This document shows, piece by piece, positions 1-17,382 of a DNA stretch of 17,382 bases. The stretch lies in IMG/VR virus record IMGVR_UViG_3300029473_000215. One strand, given 5' to 3'. This DNA comes from a virus (Duplodnaviria > Heunggongvirae > Uroviricota > Caudoviricetes). The position numbers and the translations under genes were made by a program. Every line of letters begins with the position of its first letter. Within the stretch, counting starts at the first letter, position 1. The notes under the pieces were generated by a model. The model made no database searches and was not told the DNA's origin. It worked only from the letters and a program-made list of their open reading frames with translations.

Positions 1-1338
1 ATGCGTCAGAGAGAGCTTGCAGCCACCGCTAAGGCCTTCATGTTGGATAGGCCTGAAGTCTCACTACAGGAGCTTACAGAGCATCTCCGGTCTATGGCTG
101 AGCAGTTCCTGACAGACGCTAGTGACGATTACTGGAATGGACTTGAGGTCGCTACTTTGGTCGACGAGAAGTCCAACCTGAGGGAGCTAGCCGCTACGCA
201 AGCATTGAGTCTGGACCAGCAGAAGGGCATAAGGTTAGCGCTTGAAGTCCTGACCGCAGCACAGCAGAGGGTAGACACTGGTGATACCTCTGGTCTGATT
301 GATATTGTGATGAATAACCCTACGGATTACTCAACTATAGGCGACTCTACGTCAATTCTGAAGAATGAGCAGGGGGGTAGACCAGCAGTTTTCACACAGG
401 AGCGCCAACCTGAGGTCGCTATCTGTAGTTTTTCTGAGCTTGTGTCCTCGCTGCTGGCTGAGAAGGTCCAGACCCTGAAGTCCTCCAGCTACAAGGACCT
501 GTCGTCCTCACTGAATACCGTCTCTCGGTTCTTACCTGAAAACATGGACCTGATGTCCCGCTCTGAGTGGCTGGCTGTCAGGGACTCCATGCTGGCTGCT
601 GAGGTGAGACCATCGACAATCAACAAGCTGCTGACTAAAGCGAAGATGTGTCTTGATTACGGTCTGATGAATGGACAGCTTGAGGGCCGCAACCCTATTG
701 AACGGATGAAGCTGACCAAGGATATCGACTCCAAGCGCAGGGCGTTCACAGACGAGGAGCTGGAGAGACTTCTGGTCCGTGTTGAGTCTGAGTATCAGTT
801 CACACGACACACGGCTCACACGACCTCTGAGGCCCGTAGATGGGCGTCTCTGGTGTCTGTGGTCACTGGCGCTCGGTCTGCTGAGGTCTGCCACCTGACT
901 AAACGTGACATTGTAACCTTGGACAATGGGCTGGTCTGTATCGACATCAATGAAGATGGGGACGGGAAGTCTGTGAAGAACAAACATTCAGTCCGACTTG
1001 TGCCGTTGACCGATGGGGCCTGTGGTCTTGACCTGAAGTCCTTCCTCGAATGGGTAGACATGCAGCCTGACGAGGGTCCTCTCTTCGGGATGACTCCAAG
1101 CGCATACTCTAGCTGGTTTAACTCAAGGGTCATGACTGAAGCTCTGGGAGACGCTACGGATGTCTCTCTCCACAGTCTGAGGCACTGGCTAGCGACCAGA
1201 ATGAAAGAGCGTGGAGTCAATCTGGTGGACGCTCAGGGCATCTTAGGTCACAGCAGTCAGTCCATTACGTATGACCTGTACGGGAAAGGACATGCAGTCC
1301 AGAGACTCGCAGATGCATTGGCTGTGACGTTTGGTTAA
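1..1338 (+). CDS. Tyrosine-type site-specific recombinase (phage integrase family), 445 aa
   Basis: C-terminal catalytic motifs visible in translation: TGARSAEV (box I Arg), HSLRHW (His-x-x-Arg), LGHSSQSITYDLYGKG (conserved His and catalytic Tyr). ATG sits at window position 1, so the true N-terminus could lie upstream. Confidence 0.7.
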   Translation: MRQRELAATAKAFMLDRPEVSLQELTEHLRSMAEQFLTDASDDYWNGLEVATLVDEKSNLRELAATQALSLDQQKGIRLALEVLTAAQQRVDTGDTSGLIDIVMNNPTDYSTIGDSTSILKNEQGGRPAVFTQERQPEVAICSFSELVSSLLAEKVQTLKSSSYKDLSSSLNTVSRFLPENMDLMSRSEWLAVRDSMLAAEVRPSTINKLLTKAKMCLDYGLMNGQLEGRNPIERMKLTKDIDSKRRAFTDEELERLLVRVESEYQFTRHTAHTTSEARRWASLVSVVTGARSAEVCHLTKRDIVTLDNGLVCIDINEDGDGKSVKNKHSVRLVPLTDGACGLDLKSFLEWVDMQPDEGPLFGMTPSAYSSWFNSRVMTEALGDATDVSLHSLRHWLATRMKERGVNLVDAQGILGHSSQSITYDLYGKGHAVQRLADALAVTFG

Positions 1339-1487
1339 GTGACTGAAAGTATTAGCAACCACACTAAACTATCACTGTAGGGACTTCATCCCGCCTCTGG
1401 TCCTATGCGTAGCGTCCATGCGGGAGCCACCCAACTTAACTTTCAGCATCACTCATCCACTTTCACCATTACACGGAGGTATCCATC

Positions 1488-2222
1488 ATGGGCCGACCAG
1501 CCAAGCCACTAGACCGAATCAAACTGTACGACCATTACACCTTTGACCCAACCATTCCTCAGCTACTCCGAGTCAAGACACCTTACGGCCAATCTAAACG
1601 CGCCACAGGAGAGCCTGTTAGCTTCTATGTGCATCAAAATGGCTATGCCTCTGTCTCTGTACTGGGTAAGCGCTATCGTCGCTCCAGAGTCATCTACAGC
1701 CTGTGTAAGGGTCACATCCCTGAGGGAATGTTCGTTGACCATATCGACGGTAACCGACTCAATGACCATCCTGACAACCTGCGCCTAGTTACACCACAGC
1801 AGAACCAGTGGAACAGAGACAACCTTGGAGGCAAACTTCAGAACTATTTGCCGAAAGGGATTGACTTTGTAAAAGCTGAGGGTCGCTACAGAGCGCGTAT
1901 TAAGATAGACGGCAAGGTCCGGGCGAGACTCTCTTATGAGGTCAGGGAGCTTATGGTCTGGCTACAGGAACAGCGTCAGAAGCTACACGGTGAATTCGCC
2001 TACGATGGGTGGACCGACTGGACAGAGGCAGACCAGAAGCGAGCTGACGAGCGCTACGAGGTGTCCAAGCCTGAAGGGTATAAACCAAGGAAGCGACGTT
2101 TACCCGGCTACGCTAAGACGCATGATGGACTGAAAGTCTACATTGAGCCTAAAACTGGGCGTCTCTACTTTAAGAAGCTGAACAAGAAGCACTACATCGA
2201 CGAAGAGTCTGTGGTGGTTTGA
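1488..2222 (+). CDS. HNH homing endonuclease with AP2-like DNA-binding domain, 244 aa
   Basis: HNH motif VDHIDGNRLNDHPDNLRLVTPQQNQWN; downstream AP2-like segment GIDFVKAEGRYRARIKIDGKVRARLSYE; GGAGG SD (1475-1479) 8 nt before the ATG. Confidence 0.75.
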   Translation: MGRPAKPLDRIKLYDHYTFDPTIPQLLRVKTPYGQSKRATGEPVSFYVHQNGYASVSVLGKRYRRSRVIYSLCKGHIPEGMFVDHIDGNRLNDHPDNLRLVTPQQNQWNRDNLGGKLQNYLPKGIDFVKAEGRYRARIKIDGKVRARLSYEVRELMVWLQEQRQKLHGEFAYDGWTDWTEADQKRADERYEVSKPEGYKPRKRRLPGYAKTHDGLKVYIEPKTGRLYFKKLNKKHYIDEESVVV

Positions 2223-2369
2223 TGACGGTTGCTAACTTAGAGCGCCTCTGTAGGCCTTGGTGCGTCTGGTCTGTAGAGGAGGGGGCTAAATTATCAGTAT
2301 AGGGAAAATGGCAGACACTACCGCCTCTCCTTCCAGCAATGGGGGGAGGGGGGGCAGACCATAGATGCT

Positions 2370-2418
2370 GACTTAAAGTTAAGACTCTAAGTAAGACTGA
2401 AGTTATGACTCTAAGTTA
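2370..2418. repeat. Four tandem 12-bp direct repeats (consensus aGACTctAAGTtA), followed by an AT-rich tract (2417-2450) and a degenerate fifth copy near 2461-2473
   Basis: Read directly: gacttaaagtta / agactctaagta / agactgaagtta / tgactctaagtt. A G6-A-G7 tract lies just upstream (2341-2354). Confidence 0.7.
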
Positions 2419-2504
2419 ATTATTATCTTCTTATGAAGATTAATATAAGACCTATAGTCCAGACTTAAGTCAGACCTCATTCCTTCTATGTGTCTTCCTC
2501 AACC

Positions 2505-2780
2505 ATGGGGTCGACGATAGCTCCGTCAGTCTCCAGCTCAAAGCATCGGGACCCTGTATACATTGGGTCGTTGCTTGGGCTTCCACCTGCTAAGGAGCCG
2601 GGTCAGTGGCGTAGCTCTCTAAAAGACAAGCTCGTTAAAGATGCAATTTTGCATGTTTTAGCAGGACGCTCCGGTGGTTCGACTCCGGGTCGGCATTCAG
2701 ATTGGCAAAGTAGAAGACACCGAGTCGACACAGTACAAGCGTTTTGCTCAGACCAAAGTTGGAAAGCTACTGAGGAATAG
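2505..2780 (+). pseudogene. Partial duplicate of the KilA-N gene 5' region (KilA-N N-terminal motif fragment); may be a remnant or a small paralog
   Basis: Translation ...PPAKEPGQWRSSLKDKLVKDAILHVLAGRSGGSTPG... matches ...PSAKEPGQWRSSVRTLLDQDANLHVAHGGSTPG... of the 3011-3769 protein. Shares an exact 26-nt block (ctgctaaggagccgggtcagtggcgt) and a 17-nt block (ggtggttcgactccggg); no similarity downstream. Confidence 0.3.
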
Positions 2781-3010: not shown

Positions 3011-3769
3011 ATGTCAACTCAACCCTTAATGAAGCATGAAGTAGTTCTTCCGGTCATCGTTGACGGCTATCACTGGGCCTGTAATCAGGACCGTATGTGG
3101 AACCTGAACGAGCTACATAAAGAGCTTGAGCTTCCATCTGCTAAGGAGCCGGGTCAGTGGCGTTCTAGCGTCAGGACGCTTCTTGACCAAGATGCAAATT
3201 TGCATGTTGCTCATGGTGGTTCGACTCCGGGGACATGGGCTACTGAAGAGGCGGCTATTGCCTATGCGATGTGGGTCTCACCTGATTTCTACCTTAAGGT
3301 CATCCGTGCTTTCATCGCTTTACGTAACGACAAAGTGTCGGAAGCTAAGGCGCTGGCGCAGGACTCCAAGGAACTTAAGGGTCTCAAGCCTATAGCCCGT
3401 AACTGGCTGGAAAAGCTGGATAACCCGAAGCAGGGCCACACCCTGACAGAGTGTCTTAAGAATCTCGACTTCAGGTTAGGTACAAAGCTGGTATCAGCCA
3501 AGGCTCTTAATGCCGTATTGAAGTCAGGGCGTATAGCTAATCCCTTCTATAGTCGCAAGCTGGACGGTCGAGGACAGCCTGTATTTGACATCTCATCAGG
3601 TGGCTGGATGACCAGCTTCAATCCTAAGGGTCTGGAGAACGGCTATTACCGTCTTCAGGATAACCACTATAACGGTCAGGAGGGGCTTAAGGTCCTCACC
3701 AAGGGTTACGAGTGGCTTAAGTCCAACAAGGTCGAGCTGGTTCGTCTGTGCGCTAAGGGAGGACTCTAA
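3011..3769 (+). CDS. KilA-N domain protein, 252 aa
   Basis: KilA-N/APSES-like signature ...HGGSTPGTWATEEAAIAYAMWVSPDFYLKVIRAF; SD aaaaggag 10 nt upstream of the ATG. Confidence 0.7.
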   Translation: MSTQPLMKHEVVLPVIVDGYHWACNQDRMWNLNELHKELELPSAKEPGQWRSSVRTLLDQDANLHVAHGGSTPGTWATEEAAIAYAMWVSPDFYLKVIRAFIALRNDKVSEAKALAQDSKELKGLKPIARNWLEKLDNPKQGHTLTECLKNLDFRLGTKLVSAKALNAVLKSGRIANPFYSRKLDGRGQPVFDISSGGWMTSFNPKGLENGYYRLQDNHYNGQEGLKVLTKGYEWLKSNKVELVRLCAKGGL

Positions 3770-4081: not shown

Positions 4082-4573
4082 ATGTTATTCAACAACAACG
4101 ACTGGAAACTGTCAGTCACCGACATCAATCTCTACGAGAATACTGTGAGTCTGGACGGTCAGTCCTATCCGTTGTCGCTCGCTATCAAGACCCTCATTCC
4201 GGGCTACCTGTCCGGCCTGCCAGCCACCAGCCGTGAGTCTATGGAGCTACTGGAAGCTCTGGCTGAAGCTGGCGTGACCATTGGTAACTTCTTCAGTAAT
4301 GACCTGATGACCGCCTACCAACGCCGCCAGATGAATAAGCGTGTCGAGGCTGAGCGTATCGCTAAAGAGCTGGCGTCTCAGAAAGAGCGTACCCGCGAAA
4401 TGTTCATGACCGAAGACGAATGGCAGAAAGAGTTACAACGCCGCGAACAGGTCAAAGCTGAACGCCGGACCTATGGTGAGAACCTCCGCAGCGCTACCCA
4501 TTCCGCTGGTCGTTCCCGTGCCGCTATTGTCGCTGACCTTGAGTCAGGCGGTAACTGGCTGGACAGCCTGTAA
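4082..4573 (+). CDS. Hypothetical protein, 163 aa, with charged, probably helical C-terminal half (scaffold-like is a guess)
   Basis: AGGAG SD upstream of the ATG; C-terminal region rich in E/R/K/Q heptad-like runs (RRQMNKRVEAERIAKELASQKERTREMF...QKELQRREQVKAERR). No family recognised. Confidence 0.6.
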   Translation: MLFNNNDWKLSVTDINLYENTVSLDGQSYPLSLAIKTLIPGYLSGLPATSRESMELLEALAEAGVTIGNFFSNDLMTAYQRRQMNKRVEAERIAKELASQKERTREMFMTEDEWQKELQRREQVKAERRTYGENLRSATHSAGRSRAAIVADLESGGNWLDSL

Positions 4574-4641
4574 GACTCACAAGTGGTCCTGACCTGATGT
4601 CGGGACCCACGTATCTAAACTAATTTAGGAGATTGATTATT

Positions 4642-5628
4642 ATGACTATGACTAAAGACAGCTATCAGTTCGGCATTGAGCCAGTACGTATCACCGACAC
4701 CGACAACATTCAGGTCAATGAAGGTCTGCCGACTAACGCTGACCCACAGGTCTATGCCCTCCAGTTAGCTAAGACGGTTAAGGCTATGCTGAACGGTGTA
4801 CTTAAAGACGCTCAGGATAACATTCCGTTCCCTGTAGAAGTCCTGCCTACCCGCAATAGCCTGCCTACCCCAATCATCGCCCACACTCTGTCTGACCGCT
4901 CTGTGGTCGTCCCTGTACGCGGTGGTGAGCGACCTGAAGTCGTGACCGCTCCGTCTGGTCAGGAGATTGTGGTAGAGCCTATTGAGCAAGCTATCCTTGT
5001 GTCTCACCAGACCAAGCTATGGGACGTCAAGTCTTCCACTGGTTTCACTCAGGGTACGCTCCAGCAGGACGCTATGAACATCTGTGAGAATGTGGTCCGT
5101 ACCATCAACGCTCGCATGGTTGACGTTCTGGAGTCCTCCAAGCTGCTGAAGACTGTAGAGCTGCCAGTCCTGACTGGAAGCCTGACCACTAAGGCAGACG
5201 CTATCATGGACGCTCTGTACGAGAACACCGAGCCTTCCTTTGGTTCTGAGGTTACTGATTACGGTATCATCGCCCATGAGTCACACCTCAAGGCTCTCTC
5301 CCGTCTGGCTGCTAAGCAGGGCTTCGGTGGTGAAGACGCTATCGTGGATATGCTGGGTACCGACATCGCGTATTACAACGGTGAGGACAAAGGTGTGTTC
5401 ATGCTGGCTAAACGCTTCACGGCCCTGAGCTTCGGCTGCTTCCGTCACGACGGTGAGAATATTACGGTCGTCCTTTCACGTGATGGCGACTCTCAGTCCC
5501 ATGACCTTGAGATTCTCGGTAAAGTGTTCGTTGTCGCTGAAGCTGCTACGACCATCAAGATGGGCACTGGCTCAGCTACTGCCGTCCTGCCTGTAGTCAA
5601 ACGCCTGAGTTTCACTAAGACAAGCTAA
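4642..5628 (+). CDS. Hypothetical protein, 328 aa (possibly structural; unrecognised)
   Basis: Long ORF with AGGAG at 4627-4631, 10 nt before ATG 4642 (the ORF track starts at an upstream TTG, 4633); followed by a strong intrinsic terminator. No motif recognised. Confidence 0.65.
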   Translation: MTMTKDSYQFGIEPVRITDTDNIQVNEGLPTNADPQVYALQLAKTVKAMLNGVLKDAQDNIPFPVEVLPTRNSLPTPIIAHTLSDRSVVVPVRGGERPEVVTAPSGQEIVVEPIEQAILVSHQTKLWDVKSSTGFTQGTLQQDAMNICENVVRTINARMVDVLESSKLLKTVELPVLTGSLTTKADAIMDALYENTEPSFGSEVTDYGIIAHESHLKALSRLAAKQGFGGEDAIVDMLGTDIAYYNGEDKGVFMLAKRFTALSFGCFRHDGENITVVLSRDGDSQSHDLEILGKVFVVAEAATTIKMGTGSATAVLPVVKRLSFTKTS

Positions 5629-5647
5629 CTAACAATAACGACTTATT

Positions 5648-5686
5648 GGTCAGACTTCCGTAACTGGATGTCTGGCCTTTATTTTG
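5648..5686 (+). terminator. Rho-independent terminator after the 328-aa gene
   Basis: GGTCAGAC (5648-5655) pairs with GTCTGGCC (5670-5677) with one G-U pair, inner TCC/GGA pairs, followed by TTTATTTTG. Confidence 0.5.
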
Positions 5687-5728
5687 TACTAGTAATCTAG
5701 TTCATGGGTGCGGAAAGAGGAGGACCTA

Positions 5729-5839
5729 ATGGACCTACACAAAGTCTATCTCGTAGTCTTCCTGCTAAAGCTAGCTCTGGTAGTCGTGCTGATGGTCTGG
5801 CCTAAAGTACGATGGTTTCTGACAGAAAAATGTGAATGA
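5729..5839 (+). CDS. Small hydrophobic peptide, 36 aa, predicted single transmembrane helix (below ORF-track cutoff)
   Basis: GAGGAGGA SD (5717-5724) 5 nt before ATG 5729; translation MDLHKVYLVVFLLKLALVVVLMVWPKVRWFLTEKCE; stop TGA at 5837-5839. Confidence 0.4.
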   Translation: MDLHKVYLVVFLLKLALVVVLMVWPKVRWFLTEKCE

Positions 5840-5940
5840 CCATCTAATACATTGAGCCAGCAGACTTCCCCCCATAGTCCCGCCTCAAGTCCTGACCGAG
5901 GCCACCGGGGGGCCTGACCAGCCGTCTAGACATCCCGTCT

Positions 5941-5974
5941 AATGACACAAGTCTGGCACAAAGAATGACACAAG
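5941..5974. repeat. Two exact 11-bp direct repeats (aatgacacaag) at 5941-5951 and 5964-5974, 57-90 bp from the island/chromosome junction
   Basis: Read directly from sequence. Confidence 0.6.
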
Positions 5975-5982
5975 GTCTTGAC

Positions 5983-7440
5983 TCAATGCAGGACCTCAGG
6001 CCTACTAAGGGTCCGCTTCAAGTCCTTGAAGTTCCAGATGAACTTAATGGGCACATCCAGTTTATCTTTGCCCCGGACGCCGTCGCGGATTGCCGTCATT
6101 TTGGGGCCATGATCGATAGCATCTGTCCAGCTGAAGCAGGAAATTGACGTTTTGACCGGATTATCCAGCACCGGCAGGCGCTCTATGGTAATGGTATAGG
6201 TCGATTCACGCGCGCCACTATTTCCGCCGCTGATGCCGACATTGCCCGTCAGAATAGGCAACATAGCAATAGCGCGTGCGGTCAGCTCGCCGTTTGCCTG
6301 GCGTTGTGGCCCCCAGCCCTGGCAGGTATAAGCGGGTTTTGCTGTGCCAATTTCACGCGCCAGTTTGATGATACGGTCCACCGGGATACCGGTAATTTGC
6401 GAAGCCCACTGCGGCGTTTTCGCTGTTTTATCGTCACCTTCACCAAGAATATAGGCTTTATAGTGACCATTTTTGGGTGCATCTGCGGGTAAGGTTTTTT
6501 CGTCATAGCCGACGCAGTATTTATCGAGAAAAGGTTGATCAACGAGATTTTCGTTAATCAATACCCAGGCAATACCCGCAACCAGCGCGGCATCGGTGCC
6601 CGGGCGAATAGGAAGCCATTCATCTTCACGACCAGCAGCCGTATCGGTATATCGCGGATCGATAACAATCATTTTGGCGTTCGATTTCTCGCGCGCTTTT
6701 TCAAGAAGATAAGTGATGCCACCGCCGCTCATGCGGGTTTCTGCCGGGTTGTTACCAAACATCACGACCAGCTTGCTGTTTTCAATATCCGTGGTGCTGT
6801 TGCCATCATTACTGCCGTAGGTGTAGGGCATGGCACAGGAAATTTGCGCAGTGCTGTAGGAGCCATACTGGTTGAGTGAACCGCCGTAGCAGTTCATCAG
6901 GCGTTTGACCGCCGAGGCTGATGGCGAAGAGCGGGTCATATTGCCGCCAACAATCCCCGAAGAGTACTGAATATATACAGCCTCATTGCCATATTGTTCG
7001 ACGGTTTTTTTCAGACTACTGGCGATAGTATCCAGGGCTTCATCCCAGCTAATCCGTTCGAATTTGCCTTCACCGCGTTTACCCACGCGTTTCATTGGGT
7101 AATTCAAGCGATCGGGATGATTAATACGCCGGCGGATGGAGCGACCGCGCAAACAGGCGCGTACTTGATGATTGCCATACTCGTCGTTGCCGGTGTTGTC
7201 AGTTTCCACCCAGATCACTTCATTATCTTTAACATGTAGACGAAGTGCACAGCGGCTACCACAGTTGACGGAACAGGCACCCCAGACCACTTTCTCGCTG
7301 GCCTGTTGTACCGCTGCCGCTGCACTGCGTAGGGTGAACGGTAAAGAAAAACCGCCTGCAGCCAGCGCCAGAGAACCTATCGCGGTAGATTTAACGAGTG
7401 TTCTGCGGCTGATGCCCACCATTCGTTCATTTTTGGACAT
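5983..7440 (-). pseudogene. ynfE: 3'-truncated ynfE (DmsA-family molybdopterin oxidoreductase, Tat-secreted): about 470 native codons plus a 15-codon foreign tail
   Basis: N-terminus MSKNERMVGISRRTLVKSTAIGSLALAAG (twin-arginine signal) and body match E. coli YnfE/DmsA from memory. Homology ends after ...DVPIKFIWN (codon at 6033-6031), then FKDLKRTLSRPEVLH-stop from island DNA. Full-length protein is about 800 aa. Confidence 0.85.
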
Positions 7441-7539
7441 AACTCACTCCCTGTTCTTTATCGTTATATAAATGTTTATATATTGAATATTTAGCGCGCT
7501 AACAATAGAGGGAGTCTACCCATTTTGGGTTAAGAATTA

Positions 7540-7553
7540 TTAATCCACATCAA
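7540..7553. promoter_or_regulatory. Putative FNR-box (TTAAT-N4-ATCAA) upstream of ynfE
   Basis: ttaatccacatcaa matches 9 of 10 positions of the FNR consensus TTGAT-N4-ATCAA, about 100 bp upstream of the ynfE start; ynfEFGH is known to be anaerobically induced. Confidence 0.35.
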
Positions 7554-7600
7554 TAGAAGGGTATGAGTAATATGGTGGGATTATGTTGTATGTTCAAATC

Positions 7601-7621
7601 GCCGGATGTGTCATATCCGGC
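7601..7621 (-). terminator. Perfect 7-bp stem hairpin between ynfD and ynfE (possible weak terminator or attenuator for ynfD)
   Basis: gccggat-gtgtcat-atccggc; on the minus strand it is followed by only GATTTG, so the U-tract is weak. Confidence 0.3.
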
Positions 7622-7638
7622 GTTCAGTCGATAATGTG

Positions 7639-7947
7639 TTACTGCGGTTCGGCAGGCGCGCCATCCTGGCTAGACTGCGCGGGAGCAGAGACGTTACCGC
7701 TGGTGGTGCGGGTATAGAGAATTTTATGCGTATCATTAGCGCAATGGCCGACGACCTGGGAATCAGGCTGATCAACCTGGTCATTGGGTACAATACTTAA
7801 CGTGAAGCTGCTTTCGGGTACGCCATTATTGATAATGCGCTGTGATATATCGCTCTGTATGCGCTCACAGGATCCCGGCGCGGCGAGTACCGCGGGTGAG
7901 GCGAGGGCGAGCAGAAGCGCGGCACAGCAGGTTGAGAGTTTCATCAT
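7639..7947 (-). CDS. ynfD: YnfD, DUF1161-family secreted protein
   Basis: Translation MMKLSTCCAALLLALASPAVLA... (signal peptide) matches E. coli YnfD from memory; GGAG SD upstream of ATG 7947/7944; the ORF-track start at 7986 is an upstream extension. Confidence 0.85.
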   Translation of the reverse strand: MMKLSTCCAALLLALASPAVLAAPGSCERIQSDISQRIINNGVPESSFTLSIVPNDQVDQPDSQVVGHCANDTHKILYTRTTSGNVSAPAQSSQDGAPAEPQ

Positions 7948-8051
7948 AAGCTCCTTACGCGAAGATAACTTCTTTAAGCATAGCATTTAACGTGTAAAGT
8001 ACTGTATTTGCTACTATGATTGAGAATCATCTCTACTCTCTGGTGACTGTT

Positions 8052-8762
8052 GTGAAATACAAATTACTACCATGCTTACTCGCGATATTCCTCACAGGAT
8101 GTGACCGCACAGAGGTAACACTTTCATTTACCCCTGAGATGGCCAGTTTCTCTAATGAATTCGATTTTGATCCGCTGCGTGGTCCGGTAAAAGATTTCAC
8201 TCAGACATTAATGGATGAGCAAGGTGAAGTGACGAAACGTGTTTCTGGGACTTTGTCGGAAGAAGGCTGTTTTGATTCACTCGAATTACTGGATCTGGAA
8301 AATAATACCGTGGTCGCTCTGGTACTGGACGCCAATTATTACCGTGATGCCGAGACGCTGGAGAAGAGAGTACGTTTACAGGGAAAATGCCAGCTAGCAG
8401 AATTACCTTCTGCCGGGGTGAGTTGGGAAACCGATGATAATGGCTTCGTGATTAAAGCCAGCAGCAAACAAATGCAGATGGAATATCGCTATGATGATCA
8501 GGGTTATCCGCTGGGTAAAACCACGAAAAGTAACGACAAAACATTATCTGTCAGCGCCACGCCATCAACGGATCCGATCAAAAAATTAGATTACACAGCG
8601 GTTACTTTACTGAATAATCAACGGGTTGGTAATGTAAAACAGAGCTGTGAATATGACAGTCACGCTAATCCGGTGGACTGTCAGCTAATCATTGTTGATG
8701 AAGGAGTAAAACCCGCCGTCGAACGGGTTTACACCATCAAAAATACGATCGATTATTATTAA
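8052..8762 (+). CDS. ynfC: YnfC, UPF0257 lipoprotein
   Basis: GTG start giving MKYKLLPCLLAIFLTGC (lipobox LTGC); matches E. coli YnfC from memory; the ORF-track start at 8016 is an upstream extension. Confidence 0.85.
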   Translation: MKYKLLPCLLAIFLTGCDRTEVTLSFTPEMASFSNEFDFDPLRGPVKDFTQTLMDEQGEVTKRVSGTLSEEGCFDSLELLDLENNTVVALVLDANYYRDAETLEKRVRLQGKCQLAELPSAGVSWETDDNGFVIKASSKQMQMEYRYDDQGYPLGKTTKSNDKTLSVSATPSTDPIKKLDYTAVTLLNNQRVGNVKQSCEYDSHANPVDCQLIIVDEGVKPAVERVYTIKNTIDYY

Positions 8763-8764
8763 TG

Positions 8765-9325
8765 CTATTGTGCGGTCGGCTTCAGGAGAGTCTGACCCGG
8801 TGTTTTGTGCTCTGCCAGATACTGATGCTGGAATATACACATGCGAATGGCATTACGATATTGACCATTAATAAAGAACTCGTGCATCAATTCACCTTCA
8901 ACCGAAAAGCCAAGCTTGCGGTAAATGTGAATCGCTTTTTCATTCTCTTTATCAACGATCAGATACAGCTTATAGAGATTGAGAACGGTAAAGCCATAGT
9001 CCATTGCTAATTTGGCGGCACGGGTTGCCAGACCTTTCCCCTGATACTCCGGGGAGATAATTATCTGAAATTCTGCGCGGCGATGAACATGGTTAATTTC
9101 CACCAGCTCCACCAGACCGGCTTTTTCGCCGTCACATTCCACCACAAAGCGCCGTTCGCTCTGATCGTGAATATGCTTATCATACAGATCAGAGAGTTCA
9201 ACAAAGGCTTCGTAGGGTTCCTCAAACCAGTAACGCATCACACTGGCGTTATTGTCGAGTTGATGTACATAGCGTAAATCTTCACGCTCCAGCGGGCGTA
9301 GCTTAACACTGTGGGCGCTTGGCAT
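8765..9325 (-). CDS. speG: Spermidine N1-acetyltransferase SpeG (GNAT family), 186 aa
   Basis: Translation [26 protein letters not shown]... matches E. coli SpeG from memory. Confidence 0.95.
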
Positions 9326-9359
9326 AACGTGTCCTTACATTCCTTAAATCAATAACAGG

Positions 9360-9701
9360 TTAGGGGGTAATAACGCGGCCAGTTCGACGGTCCAGGCAGC
9401 GCAAAGTATTGGGCTCCCAGTAGGCATTGATGTTGGCGCTTTGCTCACATTTATCGCGGTTATCAAAAGCGGCGTCGGCTTTATCCCACTCTTTTTCAGT
9501 GCGTTTATTCACTTTCTGGCGCAGATTGCGCGTGTCATTCCATTGCTCTTTTTCCATAGCGGCGTGCTGGCGGCTTTGTGCACTGTCGCCAGACTCAATC
9601 ACCAGTTTGTTAGTTTCGGCATGAACAGTTGTGCTCAATGCCAGTGCGCAAGGCAGCAGAATAGCGAGCAGGCCGATTCGTTTGCTGAGAGTGATTTTCA
9701 T
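9360..9701 (-). CDS. ynfB: YnfB, UPF0482 secreted protein, 113 aa
   Basis: N-terminal signal peptide [28 protein letters not shown]; position between speG and ynfA as in K-12. Confidence 0.85.
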
Positions 9702-9835
9702 AATTCATTCCCTGTATGAATGATTAAAGGTGATTCTACACCATCCACTGCGGACGCAAAACGTACCAGGAGGGTGTTTATATTGATGATATTATGTCGC
9801 CCTATAACTATACATGATGTCAATAAGAGACAAAG

Positions 9836-10162
9836 ATGATTAAAACAACGTTACTATTTTTTGCTACTGCGCTGTGTGAAATTATTGGATGCTTTCTGCC
9901 CTGGTTGTGGTTAAAACGAAACGCCAGTATCTGGCTGTTGCTTCCGGCGGGGATTTCACTGGCGCTGTTTGTCTGGTTGTTAACGTTGCCTCCAGCGGCG
10001 AGTGGGCGTGTTTACGCGGCTTATGGTGGCGTTTATGTCTGCACGGCGTTGATGTGGCTGCGCGTTGTGGATGGCGTGAAACTGACTCTTTATGACTGGA
10101 CGGGTGCGTTGATTGCGCTTTGCGGCATGTTGATCATTGTTGCGGGCTGGGGGCGCACGTAG
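9836..10162 (+). CDS. ynfA: YnfA, UPF0060 inner-membrane protein, 108 aa
   Basis: Hydrophobic four-helix profile; sequence [27 protein letters not shown]... matches E. coli YnfA from memory. Confidence 0.85.
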
Positions 10163-10199
10163 GAACATAAATCCATTTTATCAATAAGATAAGAGGAAG

Positions 10200-10211
10200 T
10201 GTCAGCTGACA
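10200..10211. promoter_or_regulatory. Perfect 12-bp palindrome TGTCAGCTGACA in the rspA upstream region (candidate operator)
   Basis: Read directly; lies about 160 bp upstream of the rspA ATG. Confidence 0.25.
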
Positions 10212-10367
10212 AAAGGTATTCTATTTCATCTTTTGTCAACCATTCACAGCGCAAATATACGCCTTTTTTTGTGATCACTCCGGCTTTTTTCAATCTTCAT
10301 ACTTGTATGGTAGTAGCTCAGATGCGTAGATTTCATGCATCACGACAAGCGATGCAAGGAATCGAAC

Positions 10368-11582
10368 ATGAAGATCGTAAAGGCTGAAGTTTTTGTTACC
10401 TGTCCGGGGCGTAATTTCGTCACATTAAAAATCACCACTGAGGACGGTATTACGGGCCTTGGGGATGCCACCCTCAATGGACGTGAGCTTTCCGTGGCCT
10501 CTTATTTGCAGGATCACCTTTGTCCGCAGCTTATTGGTCGCGATGCGCACCGTATCGAAGATATCTGGCAGTTTTTCTATAAAGGTGCTTACTGGCGTCG
10601 CGGTCCGGTTACGATGTCGGCCATTTCAGCGGTTGATATGGCGCTGTGGGATATTAAAGCCAAAGCTGCCAACATGCCGCTTTACCAGTTACTCGGCGGC
10701 GCGTCTCGTGAAGGGGTGATGGTTTATTGCCATACCACCGGTCACAGTATTGTTGAAGCTCTGGATGATTATGCCCGTCATCAGGAGCTGGGATTCAAAG
10801 CCATCCGCGTGCAGTGCGGAATCCCTGGTATGAAAACCACCTACGGCATGTCGAAAGGTAAAGGTCTGGCTTATGAACCCGCAACCAAAGGACAGTGGCC
10901 GGAAGAGCAGCTGTGGTCGACGGAGAAATACCTCGATTTCATGCCGAAATTGTTTGACGCGGTACGTAACAAGTTTGGTTTTAATGAACATTTGCTGCAT
11001 GACATGCACCATCGCTTAACGCCTATTGAAGCGGCGCGCTTTGGTAAAAGCATTGAAGATTATCGCATGTTCTGGATGGAAGACCCGACGCCTGCGGAAA
11101 ACCAGGAATGCTTCCGTCTCATTCGCCAACATACCGTCATACCCATCGCAGTGGGTGAAGTCTTCAACAGCATCTGGGACTGCAAACAACTGATTGAAGA
11201 GCAACTCATCGATTATATCCGCACCACGCTGACCCATGCAGGCGGAATTACCGGTATGCGCCGGATTGCCGATTTTGCTTCGCTGTATCAGGTACGTACT
11301 GGCTCACACGGTCCTTCCGATTTGTCACCAGTCTGCATGGCTGCGGCGCTGCACTTTGATCTGTGGGTCCCCAATTTCGGTGTCCAGGAATACATGGGTT
11401 ATTCCGAACAAATGCTCGAAGTCTTCCCGCACAACTGGACTTTCGATAACGGCTATATGCATCCGGGAGACAAACCGGGTCTTGGTATCGAATTCGATGA
11501 AAAGCTGGCGGCGAAATATCCCTATGAACCTGCTTATCTACCAGTCGCACGTCTGGAAGATGGCACGCTGTGGAACTGGTAA
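10368..11582 (+). CDS. rspA: Starvation-sensing protein RspA (enolase superfamily, mannonate dehydratase-like), 404 aa
   Basis: Translation [40 protein letters not shown]... matches E. coli RspA from memory; AAGGA SD 7 nt before ATG 10368; the ORF-track start at 10335 is an upstream extension. Confidence 0.93.
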
Positions 11583-11593
11583 GGAGTAAGATA

Positions 11594-12613
11594 ATGAAAA
11601 GCATATTAATTGAAAAACCGAATCAACTGGCGATTGTCGAACGTGAAATACCCACCCCGTCAGCGGGTGAAGTACGAGTAAAAGTGAAACTTGCCGGAAT
11701 TTGTGGTTCAGATAGCCATATTTATCGTGGGCATAATCCTTTTGCGAAATATCCGCGCGTCATTGGTCATGAATTCTTTGGCGTCATTGATGCAGTGGGT
11801 GAAGGCGTGGAAAGCGCCAGAGTCGGTGAACGTGTTGCTGTCGATCCGGTGGTCAGCTGTGGGCATTGCTATCCGTGCTCTATAGGTAAACCGAACGTTT
11901 GTACGACACTGGCTGTATTAGGTGTGCACGCTGACGGTGGTTTCAGTGAATATGCCGTGGTTCCGGCAAAAAATGCGTGGAAAATTCCTGAAGCAGTGGC
12001 CGATCAATATGCGGTAATGATCGAACCTTTTACCATTGCGGCTAACGTAACCGGACATGGTCAACCGACTGAAAATGATACCGTTCTGGTTTATGGTGCC
12101 GGTCCAATCGGCCTGACGATCGTTCAGGTATTAAAAGGCGTCTATAACGTTAAAAATGTGATTGTTGCCGATCGCATTGATGAACGACTGGAAAAAGCGA
12201 AAGAGAGCGGGGCTGACTGGGCGATTAATAACAGCCAGACACCGCTTGGCGAGATTTTCACTGAAAAAGGCATCAAGCCGACATTAATTATCGATGCGGC
12301 TTGTCATCCTTCTATCCTGAAAGAGGCCGTAACGCTGGCTTCTCCAGCGGCACGTATTGTATTGATGGGGTTCTCCAGTGAACCGTCTGAAGTGATTCAG
12401 CAAGGAATTACCGGAAAAGAACTCTCTATTTTCTCTTCACGCTTAAATGCAAATAAATTCCCGATCGTTATCGACTGGTTAAGTAAAGGGTTAATTAAAC
12501 CAGAAAAATTAATTACCCATACGTTTGATTTCCAGCATGTTGCTGATGCCATTAGTTTATTTGAACAGGATCAAAAACATTGCTGCAAAGTCTTACTCAC
12601 TTTTTCTGAATAA
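11594..12613 (+). CDS. rspB: Starvation-sensing protein RspB (Zn-dependent alcohol dehydrogenase family), 339 aa
   Basis: Translation MKSILIEKPNQLAIVEREIPTPSAGEVRVKVKLAGICGSDSHIY... with Zn-ligand motifs GHEFFG and CGHCYPC; AAGGAG SD; 11-nt gap after rspA (operon). Confidence 0.93.
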   Translation: MKSILIEKPNQLAIVEREIPTPSAGEVRVKVKLAGICGSDSHIYRGHNPFAKYPRVIGHEFFGVIDAVGEGVESARVGERVAVDPVVSCGHCYPCSIGKPNVCTTLAVLGVHADGGFSEYAVVPAKNAWKIPEAVADQYAVMIEPFTIAANVTGHGQPTENDTVLVYGAGPIGLTIVQVLKGVYNVKNVIVADRIDERLEKAKESGADWAINNSQTPLGEIFTEKGIKPTLIIDAACHPSILKEAVTLASPAARIVLMGFSSEPSEVIQQGITGKELSIFSSRLNANKFPIVIDWLSKGLIKPEKLITHTFDFQHVADAISLFEQDQKHCCKVLLTFSE

Positions 12614-12801: not shown

Positions 12802-14082
12802 TTAATTTTTCATTGCTTCGTTATGGGGCATGGTTGGGGCAAACTCGCTTAACTGTGTATTTAACAAAGCTACCTGTGCATTATTGTTTTCAGACATCCA
12901 TTTTCCGTATACCTGAAATACCATTTGCGCATCTGCATGGCCCATCTGGTTTGCTATAAATGCCGGGTTAGCACCAGCTGTCAGCGACCAGCAGGCATAA
13001 GTATGTCTCGACTGATATGATTTTCGATGGCGGAGTCCGGCACGTTTTATCGCTGCGTCCCACATCTGCCTTATTGAGTCAACGGTAAAATGGTCACCAT
13101 AATTTTTTACTCCCGCTGACACTTCAGGTTGAAAAACAAAGGTGCATTTTTGTTTTTCTGTTCTGCCATACTCTCTGAGGTGAACATCAATGATATGCTC
13201 TTTGCTCAGTCTCGTTAATGTCATCTGACTCCGGAGAGCGTCGATTGCTGGCTTAATAAGATGAATGACCCGATTGGTTCCCGCCTGTGTTTTTGGTACC
13301 GTGAAACGGTCTTTTGCTAAATTTCTCCTGATCATCATTGTTCCATTTTTCAGATCTATGTCCTCCCATCCAAGTGCACACAGCTCACCAGGGCGAACGC
13401 CAGTATAAACAGAAACACACCATAAATTTTTTGCTTGCTGATTTCTGCACGCATCGATAAGACGGATAAATTCCTCCCGCGAAAGAGGATCCGGAATGGT
13501 TCTTGATTCCTTTAATGGCGAGATCCCCTTAAACGGATTATCTGGCAGGTAACCGTTATCAACACCAAACTGGAACACGGCGTTAAGATTTGTCATGTAA
13601 TTATTTACAGTTACAGCCGATCTTCCTGGTTGTGTAACAATATAGTTACTTTTGGGGATCTGGTATCCAGTCAGTAGCTCTTTACGAACCTCCAGTAATT
13701 TTTCTTTATTAATCGATGAGGCAAGATTTTTTTCACCGATTATGCTCAGGATATTTTTGATGACGGCACGGTATGTGTTGAGTGATGTTTTGGCGACTTC
13801 AGTTTCTTTCAGTGCCAGAAATTTTTCAGCCAGTTCTTTTATGGTTAAATCTTGTCGGGCCTCACCAAATTTTTCCAGATTGCGTGAGGAGGGAAACTGT
13901 TTTGCATAGTCGAAAACACCAGTTTTTATTGCGTAACAAACAGAGGAGCGTAGTTCACCTGCAACGCGCCTGTTTTTTGCTGTGTCAGGAACCCCCAGAT
14001 TTTCCCTGACTCTTACGCCTTTATAGACAAACCAGATACGTAATTTCCCTCCATGGTTTTCCACGCCTGTCGGATATTTCAT
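12802..14082 (-). CDS. Lambdoid phage integrase (tyrosine recombinase with N-terminal arm-binding domain), about 426 aa
   Basis: N-terminus MKYPTGVENHGGKLRIWFVYKGVRVRE resembles Rac IntR-type arm-binding domains; C-terminus carries RHRKSYQSRHTYAC...GHADAQMVFQVYGKW. Start chosen at 14082; an alternative ATG is at 14097. Confidence 0.9.
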   Translation of the reverse strand: MKYPTGVENHGGKLRIWFVYKGVRVRENLGVPDTAKNRRVAGELRSSVCYAIKTGVFDYAKQFPSSRNLEKFGEARQDLTIKELAEKFLALKETEVAKTSLNTYRAVIKNILSIIGEKNLASSINKEKLLEVRKELLTGYQIPKSNYIVTQPGRSAVTVNNYMTNLNAVFQFGVDNGYLPDNPFKGISPLKESRTIPDPLSREEFIRLIDACRNQQAKNLWCVSVYTGVRPGELCALGWEDIDLKNGTMMIRRNLAKDRFTVPKTQAGTNRVIHLIKPAIDALRSQMTLTRLSKEHIIDVHLREYGRTEKQKCTFVFQPEVSAGVKNYGDHFTVDSIRQMWDAAIKRAGLRHRKSYQSRHTYACWSLTAGANPAFIANQMGHADAQMVFQVYGKWMSENNNAQVALLNTQLSEFAPTMPHNEAMKN

Positions 14083-14116
14083 TTCAACTTCTCTCATTAG
14101 TTAGTGTGGCTTTTAG

Positions 14117-14368
14117 TCAAGTAAGATGACGTCTTGGTCTCGCTGATGCCTGGCGCTCAATCCAGCGATCAATTTCTTCCAGGTTGTAAAAGCATGGACT
14201 GTTATCCCATGGCATACCGTCATGAGCGACATGCTTATATTCCCTTCCTTCCATAAACGATTTTTCCCGGGCCTTTTTTAGCGTACCTTTTTTTATTCCT
14301 TTCAGCGCAATTAACTGCTCTTCGGATACCCATTTGCCGGGAGAGACAATCATGATTACTTCGCTCAT
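14117..14368 (-). CDS. Excisionase-like protein, 83 aa
   Basis: Small basic protein immediately upstream of int on the same strand; sequence ...GKWVSEEQLIALKGIKKGTLKKAREKSFMEGREYKHV... resembles the lambdoid prophage excisionase-like family from memory. Confidence 0.65.
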   Translation of the reverse strand: MSEVIMIVSPGKWVSEEQLIALKGIKKGTLKKAREKSFMEGREYKHVAHDGMPWDNSPCFYNLEEIDRWIERQASARPRRHLT

Positions 14369-14397
14369 CGATTTCTTTATCTCTTACATCAGACGAG

Positions 14398-14429
14398 CGC
14401 CGGTTGCAGAATACCAGTCACAACCGGCG
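14398..14429. other. 9-bp perfect inverted repeat with 14-nt spacer between the exo and xis genes
   Basis: cgccggttg (14398-14406) and caaccggcg (14421-14429); no adjacent U-tract on either strand. Confidence 0.3.
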
Positions 14430-14440
14430 ACAGTTGAACA

Positions 14441-16912: not shown

Positions 16913-17005
16913 TTTGTTTTAACCTCATGACAGATTTAAGGATGAACAAATCCCTGCCATTGCTGGCATATAAGAATGAAACCGGATATTTATTACGGAA
17001 CTGTT

Positions 17006-17197
17006 TTAAAGACCTGCCGGGATTTCGATATTATCCTGGTGAATAACTTTATCGACCGGGTAACAGTTACCGGGAATTTTCTGTTCGGTTGCTGCAGTCA
17101 TACACTCCTGCATTGTCCTGTGAACACTGACTGCAATATCAACTGGCACTCCGGAAACAAGAAAAACTGTCAGAACAAGCGCAAATGCTGAATTCAT
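17006..17197 (-). CDS. Small hypothetical protein with N-terminal hydrophobic segment, 63 aa
   Basis: AAGGA SD 8 nt before ATG 17197; translation MNSAFALVLTVFLVSGVPVDIAVSVHRT...; start overlaps the stop of the upstream gene (ATGA). The ORF track begins at an upstream ATG, 17251. Confidence 0.5.
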   Translation of the reverse strand: MNSAFALVLTVFLVSGVPVDIAVSVHRTMQECMTAATEQKIPGNCYPVDKVIHQDNIEIPAGL

Positions 17198-17382
17198 TGT
17201 GCACATCCTTTTGGCATCAGACGTAAACGAGCCAGCATTGAAACAATGCATATTTTATTTAATAGCTCCCGTTCTTGTTTTCTCTTGTTAATGGCATCTT
17301 CAGTAAATACAGGGTTACTGATAGTGACACCAATTTCAAAACAACCTTCAGACGTATTAACGTTTGGTAATAACGTTTTCAT
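17194..17382 (-). CDS. Small hypothetical protein, at least 62 aa; start coincides with the window edge so it may be 5'-partial
   Basis: Open frame on the minus strand ending with a TGA that overlaps the next ATG (translational coupling); no family recognised. Confidence 0.4.
   Translation of the reverse strand: MKTLLPNVNTSEGCFEIGVTISNPVFTEDAINKRKQERELLNKICIVSMLARLRLMPKGCAQ

Follow-up and report, generated by a model that had tools for sequence, protein, structure and literature searches.

A phage-promoter-led non-coding module in an Escherichia coli integrase island as a candidate origin activated by a T7-like helper phage

The 17,382-nucleotide stretch of DNA analyzed here (the window; IMG/VR virus record IMGVR_UViG_3300029473_000215) is a piece of Escherichia coli chromosome. 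An integrase island of 6,576 bp interrupts the ynfE gene there, and positions 1 to approximately 6044 hold the greater part of it. A 790-bp unannotated gap between the HNH endonuclease and KilA-N genes of this island holds a short tandem repeat array, which a preliminary description made from the sequence had taken for the classic organization of an iteron-type origin. We find that the array very probably belongs to a non-coding module led by a phage promoter, and not to an origin of the iteron/Rep kind. The promoter (2285-2307), overlooked in that description, lies approximately 70 nt 5' of the array and by its sequence is one for the RNA polymerase of Kayfunavirus phages (K1F-like members of the T7 family). 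Because the module is laid out like a T7 origin and contains no gene, and because no replication protein is encoded by the island, we favor, with less than even confidence, the reading that the module is a T7-type origin activated through transcription by the polymerase of a helper phage. The helper-type promoters, attachment (att) repeats, a segment resembling a phage concatemer junction and a protein with a capsid fold suggest, moreover, that the island is an apparently undescribed satellite of a T7-like phage.

Results

Phage-type promoters

Alignment of divergent copies of the array region revealed a conserved motif, CTAAAyTATCAsTATAGGGA, 5' of the repeats, which carries the core (...CACTATAGGGA) typical of T7-family promoters. 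The motif has two sites in the window (1364-1383 and 2286-2305), both of them intergenic and on the + strand, where 0.01 would be expected. A position weight matrix (PWM) of 23 nt was built from the 11 annotated promoters of the Kayfunavirus phage CR44b (consensus ACTAAACTATCACTATAGGGA), it being understood that the promoters in phage records are themselves predictions. On this scale the site upstream of the HNH gene (promoter 1, 1363-1385) scores 32.4 bits, the sites of CR44b itself ranging from 29.6 to 35.4, and its central 18 bases (1364-1381) are those of CR44b 7471-7488, within the promoter annotated at 7470-7492. The site at the head of the module (promoter 2) scores 23.0 bits in the window, and the same position reaches 33-35 bits in the EC529, PCN033, LR-29 and L055 variants. 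No phage group using the deviant promoter of the window, AAATTATCAGTATAGGGA, was evident. Matches to the exact 18-mer AAAYTATCACTATAGGGA fall nearly exclusively on viral contigs 39-40 kb long, frequently with several to a contig, and the one such contig that was sampled (L020) matches Kayfunavirus phages such as CR44b, ST31 and relatives of K1F.

The PWM found no sites on the - strand of the window and none in 11 kb of flanking chromosome, and it found one to three promoters in every island homologue examined, almost all of them on the + strand; the sole - strand match among the homologues, a weak one of 16.7 bits, lies inside an insertion sequence (IS) element of homologue L003. A simple sigma70 scan yielded no promoter on the gene strand of the island. 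Since phage-type promoters are present in all homologues and no sigma70-like promoter was found on the gene strand, the island genes, which all lie on the + strand behind phage-type promoters, appear to be wired to the RNA polymerase that an infecting Kayfunavirus supplies.

Behind most island promoters stands a common leader, (C)CGCCTCTG...GCG...CATGCGG, that folds into a 5' stem-loop (promoter 1 of the window and homologues L003, L005, L045, L046 and L056), and the 5' hairpin of the module opens with CCGCCTCT, as does this common leader. A different conserved non-coding stretch (...GGATTGGAAACC...TTTAACGTAGCAATCTCTCTC...GACAGGCGGAGA...) stands 3' of a phage promoter in L005 (3264-3600) and L046 (4270-4600) and may be another structured RNA.

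The repeat array and its module

The array had been described as four 12-bp repeats at 2370-2418. There are indeed four units, spanning 2370-2419, and they measure 12-13 bp (Table 1). Tandem Repeats Finder (TRF) calls the array at 2376-2419, with a period of 12, 3.5 copies and a score of 60. The sequence GACTNNAAGT occurs five times in the window against 0.55 expected, a count of at least five appearing in none of 200 shuffles, while the looser pattern GACTnnA[AG]GT has 11 copies on the + strand of the island, none in the rest of the window and, as detailed below, many in CR44b. Homologues carry three units (PSJ-29), four (the window type) or eight (strains 102651 and EC529), and hence the array is a true slippage-prone tandem repeat.

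The other elements of the preliminary description are also in place, with some amendment. Its degenerate fifth repeat (2461-2473) corresponds to a palindrome, GACTTAAGTC, at 2462-2471, which in the RNA fold pairs back with array units 3-4. Its AT-rich stretch reaches 80-83% A+T in 30-bp windows, and the AT-rich DNA (2400-2450) lies approximately 115 nt 3' of the start site of promoter 2. In the melting prediction the 40-mer at 2411-2450 has the lowest duplex stability of the island and the second lowest of the whole window (ΔG of -38.9 against a mean of -54.4, standard deviation [sd] 4.0). GC skew proved uninformative across an element of 6.6 kb. The G6-A-G7 tract is present, yet it does not stand free: it pairs with the C/U tract lying at 2324-2335 and so supplies the 3' side of a hairpin. 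The region is non-coding: an open reading frame (ORF) scan found no ORF of at least 40 aa overlapping 2223-2489, all six frames as read from the sequence meet a stop codon inside the array or at its end, and the Prokaryotic Genome Annotation Pipeline (PGAP) annotates nothing over the array region in any homologue examined. A short peptide ORF from the ATG at 2309 was rejected, for it is not kept in the other variants of the module.

Table 1. Coordinates of the features of the island in the window
Feature	Position	Strand	Basis or remark
Tyrosine integrase	1-1338	+	Pfam Phage_integrase
Kayfunavirus-type promoter 1, ACTAAACTATCACTGTAGGGACT	1363-1385	+	putative start site near 1380; upstream of HNH gene
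HNH (homing-type) endonuclease, variable cargo	1488-2222	+	Pfam HNH_3, PHROG 99, PADLOC HEase
Kayfunavirus-type promoter 2, GCTAAATTATCAGTATAGGGAAA	2285-2307	+	putative start site G2302; start of the non-coding module
5'-proximal hairpin, C/U tract 2324-2335 with 2340-2351 (G tract), loop GCAA	2324-2354	+	RNA and DNA folds
G6-A-G7 tract	2341-2354	+	sequence; 3' arm of hairpin 2324-2354
Invariant block GGCAGACCATAGATGCTGAC	2353-2372	+	identical in all variants
Tandem array, four 12-13-bp GACTnnAAGTnn units	2370-2419	+	sequence, TRF, motif count
Array unit 1, GACTTAAAGTTAA	2370-2382		
Array unit 2, GACTCTAAGTAA	2383-2394		
Array unit 3, GACTGAAGTTAT	2395-2406		
Array unit 4, GACTCTAAGTTAA	2407-2419		
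AT-rich tract with hairpin, core ATCTTC 2425-2430 / GAAGAT 2435-2440	2417-2450	+	
Fifth, palindromic unit GACTTAAGTC	2462-2471	+	sequence; RNA fold
Box CCATGGGGTCGACGATAGCTC, shared with left genome end of Kayfunavirus phages	2503-2523	+	alignment
Terminal hairpin GACCC/GGGTC, closes module	2550-2569	+	compensatory change
KilA-N domain protein, variable, regulator-like	3011-3769	+	Pfam KilA-N, PHROG 129
Conserved 163-aa protein	4082-4573	+	no Pfam, PHROG or PADLOC family match
331-aa HK97-fold major capsid/encapsulin-like protein	4633-5628	+	predicted structure
Terminator-like hairpin followed by T run, after capsid-fold gene	5648-5686	+	DNA fold -8.5 kcal/mol, z -5.1
Concatemer-junction-like segment (SRR-type repeats, terminal-repeat start, ...CCCCATAG...)	5798-5903	+	local alignment
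attR core GAAGTTCCAGATGAACT, right island boundary inside ynfE	6028-6044	+	one mismatch against GTAGTTCCAGATGAACT

The module as a whole extends over approximately 290 bp (2285-2577) and comprises, in this order, the promoter, the G-tract hairpin, the invariant block, the array, the AT tract, a box shared with phage genome ends and a closing hairpin. It is known in three sequence variants, the flanks of which have diverged to approximately 80% identity. All three hairpins keep their pairing by changes on both sides, although this covariation rests on three variants and few independent events: in PCN033 and LR-29 the 5'-proximal hairpin has UA in place of CG and AU in place of UA, the AT-tract stem ATCTTC/GAAGAT is replaced by ATTGTG/CACAAT in the same two variants, and the terminal hairpin changes from CG to UA in PCN033. 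The G runs of 2341-2354 stay intact even where the pairing base mismatches. The transcript 2302-2580 folds better than all of 200 shuffles (minimum free energy z -4.1), and an Rfam search over the module gave nothing at the gathering score, its single weak match being to chrB-a (E 0.27).

By BLAST, the discrete module (2223-2577) is found in only about 30 genomes and ends at a homology boundary at 2577. Most variants have a further phage promoter 3' of it, at a distance of 30-60 nt at most, and the recombination boundary at 2577 has removed this promoter from the window. Because the next gene thus mostly has its own promoter right after the module, the latter is not simply the leader of that gene. 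The window segment 2578-2860 (+), without the usual second promoter, is unlike that of all other variants except strain ECZP248; within it, a T-arm-like stretch at 2676-2690, GGTTCGACTCC, was considered as part of a tRNA or tmRNA and discarded, neither ARAGORN nor Rfam having found one. The genes 5' of the module may be HNH, DUF4145, an IS element or a pseudogene, and the neighboring gene, KilA-N in the window, is another or unannotated in the islands of 102651, EC529, PCN033 and LR-29. The invariant 20-21-mer had no match in viral contigs, and in GTDB genomes and metagenomes it returned only the three known variants, apart from two matches in coding sequence that are due to chance.

Similarity to Kayfunavirus genomes

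The repeat motif of the island is also abundant in the phage. In CR44b, GACTnnA[AG]GT occurs 32 times on one strand and 28 times on the other, where 4.2 would be expected, and TRF finds arrays directly 3' of the promoters of gene 1 (1832-1867, GACTCAAAGTCAAA) and gene 10 (20131-20161). These are akin to the island array in motif family, in period (11-14 bp against 12-13 bp) and in their position directly after a promoter; they differ in that a highly expressed gene begins within approximately 40-100 nt of each, whereas no gene precedes the next promoter in the island. Further arrays, of 14-17 bp, stand next to the genome ends of CR44b (291-320 and 38907-38939).

Two short elements of the module point to the phage ends as well. 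The box at 2503-2523 is identical to CR44b 378-398 at 19 of 21 positions and corresponds to a unique site in each phage, approximately 200 bp inside the left end, where it immediately precedes a sigma70-like TTGACT that we read by eye as presumably an A1-type early promoter, unannotated in both records. The best genome-wide match of the module in ST31 (38796-38830) includes this box, with a score of 22 against a null of 14.5 (sd 1.2). The sequence GACCATAGAT, found at 2357 in the window, occurs once per phage, at 38603 in CR44b, which is approximately 175 nt 3' of the last annotated promoter (38428) and near the right end, and at the corresponding position in ST31.

Outside the module, the segment at 5798-5903 finds its best genome-wide alignment at the concatemer junction in both phages, at 38978-39087 in CR44b (score 25 against a null of 13.8, sd 1.4) and at 38407-38512 in ST31 (score 21 against 14.0, sd 1.4), and it is, on this resemblance, a possible packaging signal. 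The phage likeness of the island is limited to promoters, motifs and short boxes, without extended homology: when the non-coding regions were compared by BLAST with 50,697 phage records, no match emerged. A search for the paired-unit pattern in viral contigs returned only scattered, uninformative matches.

Gene content and distribution of the island

In the homologous locus L001 the island (5674-12250) is flanked by a 17-bp direct repeat, GTAGTTCCAGATGAACT, the right copy of which corresponds to the attR core of the window. The integrase gene starts approximately 250 bp to the left of the window, the L001 homologue being annotated as a 526-aa integrase. Among 5,426 complete E. coli genomes, 312 have a relative of the island, at ynfE or at a tRNA-Gly gene; the genes after the integrase vary among these islands, and some strains have IS elements inside the island. 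Relatives with the capsid-fold gene extend to other Enterobacterales, such as Citrobacter koseri and Rouxiella. With an integrase, att repeats and a single virion-type gene, the island has what is generally expected of a satellite. Island contigs of 6.4-6.8 kb were considered as circular forms and rejected, since they are assembly breaks at att or tRNA sequences, and the IMG/VR matches were likewise discarded as evidence of particles, as they are provirus-type regions of isolate genomes.

Searches of the island proteins with Pfam, PHROGs and PADLOC identified only the integrase, HNH and KilA-N families and no Rep, primase or helicase domain, in agreement with the earlier remark that no obvious Rep or primase gene is at hand. 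A stretch of the HNH gene (1719-1793, +) has nucleotide similarity to 3.8B, a homing endonuclease gene of CR44b, a hint that the island and the phage presumed to be its helper have exchanged genes. The KilA-N gene is followed by two or three small ORFs. The gene of the 163-aa protein precedes the capsid-fold gene in all islands, and a scaffold role for its product is conjecture only; a profile comparison with the CR44b scaffold revealed no sequence similarity.

The 331-aa protein has no Pfam or PHROG match, its family profile bears no sequence similarity to the CR44b capsid protein, and tblastn against phages gave no match. An AlphaFold2 model based on a 31-sequence alignment of remote homologues is nonetheless confident (predicted local distance difference test [pLDDT] 83.8, predicted template modeling score 0.79), whereas a model from close homologues only reached a pLDDT of 35.6. 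Foldseek against the PDB returned 227 matches at E<=1e-3 for the former, and every one of the 50 matches listed is a phage capsid, an encapsulin or a related shell with the HK97 fold; judging from this model, the island may build its own shell. In T7, gene 10 is followed by its terminator, the order in which the capsid-fold gene and a terminator-like hairpin occur here. A remote mini-island (L060), composed of an integrase, proteins of 254 and 155 aa and a 332-aa capsid-fold homologue at 36% identity, also has the gene preceding the capsid-fold gene and carries three copies of a T7-like motif, TAAACCCCGACTATAGAGAG (5751-5806 and 9463-9482). This motif has the appearance of a promoter belonging to another T7-like phage, and the island design may hence be general.

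To the right of the island, the split selenate reductase gene ynfE retains its N-terminal 485 codons on this side (5983-7440, -), and the chromosome continues from 7639 with ynfD, ynfC, speG, ynfB, ynfA, rspA and rspB up to the integrase end of a prophage. This second mobile element, adjoining rspB (12802-17382, -), encodes an integrase that contains an Arm-DNA-binding domain, a DUF1233 excisionase, a DUF1482 protein and an 823-aa protein with a C-terminal Rv2179c-like exonuclease domain; small tandem repeats occur in its region at 12477-12499 and 17354-17378.

Discussion

A proposed helper-activated T7-type origin

The arrangement described above includes two of the features by which a T7-type origin is recognized, a phage promoter directed inward and an AT-rich region downstream of it. 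In the mechanism that we propose, the island would remain silent until a Kayfunavirus infects the cell, whereupon the phage polymerase would fire from 2302 into the module. The transcript would open and prime the DNA at 2417-2450, as at T7 origins, after which copying of the excised island would fall to the phage DNA polymerase and helicase-primase. Both array and G tract would act as accessory origin elements, contributing spacing, unwinding, and stabilization of an R-loop or primer, and neither would be a binding site for a Rep protein.

Several observations weigh against this proposal. Promoter 2 deviates from its consensus at two positions in the window, and its score there is low. Of the 312 E. 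coli genomes with an island, only about 30, or roughly a tenth, have the module; most islands being without it, the module cannot be the only origin of the family, and bare promoters would have to serve the remaining islands as secondary origins. The three covarying hairpins and the stability of the transcript fold argue for selection on RNA, because a plain unwinding element would not need kept hairpins. Finally, the phage arrays lie in the 5' mRNA leaders of gene 1 and gene 10, which to our knowledge are not known as origins, and the CR44b promoter region after gene 1 (4876), equivalent to T7 phi1.1, does not look AT-rich when its sequence is read.

Alternative interpretations

Selection on RNA is the basis of the foremost alternative, possible although doubtful in our estimate, in which the module is a structured RNA or leader of approximately 270 nt made by the phage polymerase and acting as RNA. 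It could be a processing or stabilizing element of the RNase III type, as in the transcripts of the T7 family, or a regulatory RNA that pairs with the leader arrays of the phage, for instance that of gene 1, and interferes with the helper. The compensatory substitutions and the folding energy speak for it, as do the delimitation of the module by a promoter and a closing hairpin, followed by another promoter, and the arrays of the same motif in the CR44b leaders. The few independent events behind the covariation, the lack of an Rfam match and an array copy number of three to eight, unusual for a precisely folded RNA, speak against it. The duplex predicted between the array and the CR44b gene 1 leader (-43.7 kcal/mol against -22.7 for shuffles, sd 4.2) is a weak argument, being near-automatic from shared quasi-palindromic units. 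This alternative overlaps, in addition, with the origin that we favor, given that a primer-RNA role is compatible with both.

It is improbable, in turn, that the module mimics the cis-acting sequences of phage genome ends and that its role, instead of replication, is in the maturation of island concatemers by terminase and their packaging, or in their entry as DNA. The location of the box just inside the phage left end, of GACCATAGAT as a single site near the right end and of 14-17-bp arrays at both would fit such a function, as would the presence of a junction-like segment elsewhere in the island. The resemblance, however, is confined to short boxes, the segment with terminal-repeat likeness (5798-5903) is 3.3 kb away from the array, the PCN033 variant does without the box, and most islands do without the module.

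The iteron origin of the preliminary description, with an initiator encoded by the element or at a distance, and its variant of an operator array for an island protein such as KilA-N, fare worse still, and we consider them very improbable. That description was right in seeing here a cis-acting unit, outside coding sequence, that combines repeats with DNA prone to melting, and an origin role, of the T7 type, is plausible for it. Direct repeats approximately one helical turn apart do lie beside an AT-rich tract, an unwinding element of the sort expected of iteron origins is present at 2411-2450, and a protein with a KilA-N DNA-binding domain is encoded approximately 600 bp downstream. The classic iteron organization does not hold up, nevertheless: the island has no Rep, primase or helicase domain, the 331-aa protein having a capsid fold; the window contains no match to the DnaA box TTWTNCACA; the units of 12-13 bp are shorter than the 17-22 bp typical of iterons and vary in number; and the same motif is scattered approximately 60 times over the phage genome. 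Moreover, since the module occurs with different neighboring genes, no cognate binding protein co-varies with it.

Least credible of all is that the array has no function and is a remnant of promoter and leader DNA from a phage, gained by recombination, for example together with the homing endonuclease gene, and kept by hitch-hiking: although the module is rare among islands, mosaic with a recombination boundary at 2577 and adjacent to a homing-type HNH gene related to phage genes, it is found behind different upstream genes, it has kept an invariant core and compensatory stems while its flanks diverged, and it is absent from the phages in the collections.

A possible satellite of T7-like coliphages

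Few viruses have been studied as thoroughly as T7 and its relatives, yet a satellite exploiting them is apparently undescribed; our search of PMC and bioRxiv full-text literature found neither a satellite of T7-like coliphages nor this island, although its coverage is incomplete and the result is absence of evidence only. Promoters specific for a helper on a chromosomal element would constitute a very simple form of infection sensing, in which the polymerase of the invader is borrowed, and, if the module is an origin, the island would be copied without any replication gene. The island may be relevant to gene transfer, and to phage therapy that employs K1F-like phages. A fuller picture, unlikely in its entirety, is that of a 'mini-T7' satellite of virulent T7-like coliphages, switched on by the helper polymerase, primed through an R-loop or G-quadruplex at the G6AG7 tract in the manner of CSB II (conserved sequence block II) of mitochondrial DNA, and packaged by mimicry of the junction either into its own HK97-fold capsids or as a six-copy concatemer in helper heads. 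Six times 6,576 bp is 39.5 kb, close to the size of Kayfunavirus genomes (39.2-40.5 kb), which is a numerical coincidence so far.

Comparison with known systems

Among satellites, the closest parallel is PICMI (for phage-inducible chromosomal minimalist island) of the Vibrionaceae, a 6.1-kb integrase island that depends on a virulent phage and is packaged as an eight-copy concatemer of helper size (PMC10803314). Its integration site adjoins fis, its core genes provide proteins for excision and replication, it has no capsid gene, and it is packaged in a headful-like manner (PMC10803314). The island described here is likewise a very small integrase island tied to a virulent phage, to judge by its promoters, but it shares no genes with PICMI, resides in a different host and at other sites (ynfE or tRNA-Gly), and phage-polymerase promoters are unreported for PICMI. 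The origins of Staphylococcus aureus pathogenicity islands (SaPI) and other phage-inducible chromosomal islands (PICI) consist of iterons that flank an AT-rich region, lie beside pri-rep and are bound by a Rep helicase encoded immediately upstream in the island. They resemble the module in combining short direct repeats with an AT-rich tract in a phage-dependent island, and differ in that the island studied here has no Rep helicase gene.

Two further systems invite comparison with the G tract and with the repeats. In the type III toxin-antitoxin systems, ToxI consists of tandem repeats of approximately 34-36 nt that precede an endoribonuclease toxin gene, unlike the module, in which the units measure 12-13 nt and no gene precedes the next promoter. 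The G runs of human CSB II read G5-6AG7-8. Transcription termination at this block makes the primer of mitochondrial replication, and does so with T7 RNA polymerase as well (PMC4176368). In both cases two G runs split by one base stand on the non-template strand shortly 3' of a promoter for a single-subunit polymerase of the T7 family, but the G tract of the module also pairs with an upstream C/U tract, as supported by compensatory changes; the resemblance is an attractive lead, which may be coincidental.

The primary origins of T7 are phi1.1A/phi1.1B, with secondary origins such as phiOR and phi6.5, and in the work of Fuller and Richardson and of Rabkin and Richardson an AT-rich region reportedly lies downstream of the promoter at such origins. 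There, a transcript of the phage polymerase primes the phage DNA polymerase, and no dedicated initiator protein takes part (PMC8373140). The module shares with them a phage-polymerase promoter followed by an easily melted AT-rich stretch, and it differs in residing on a chromosomal island, in having a G-rich hairpin and a variable array before the AT tract and a closing hairpin after it, in the Kayfunavirus specificity of its promoter and in that its role as an origin is deduced from layout. On these analogies, the module would work most like a T7 origin, and it looks most like the promoter-proximal arrays of Kayfunavirus phages.

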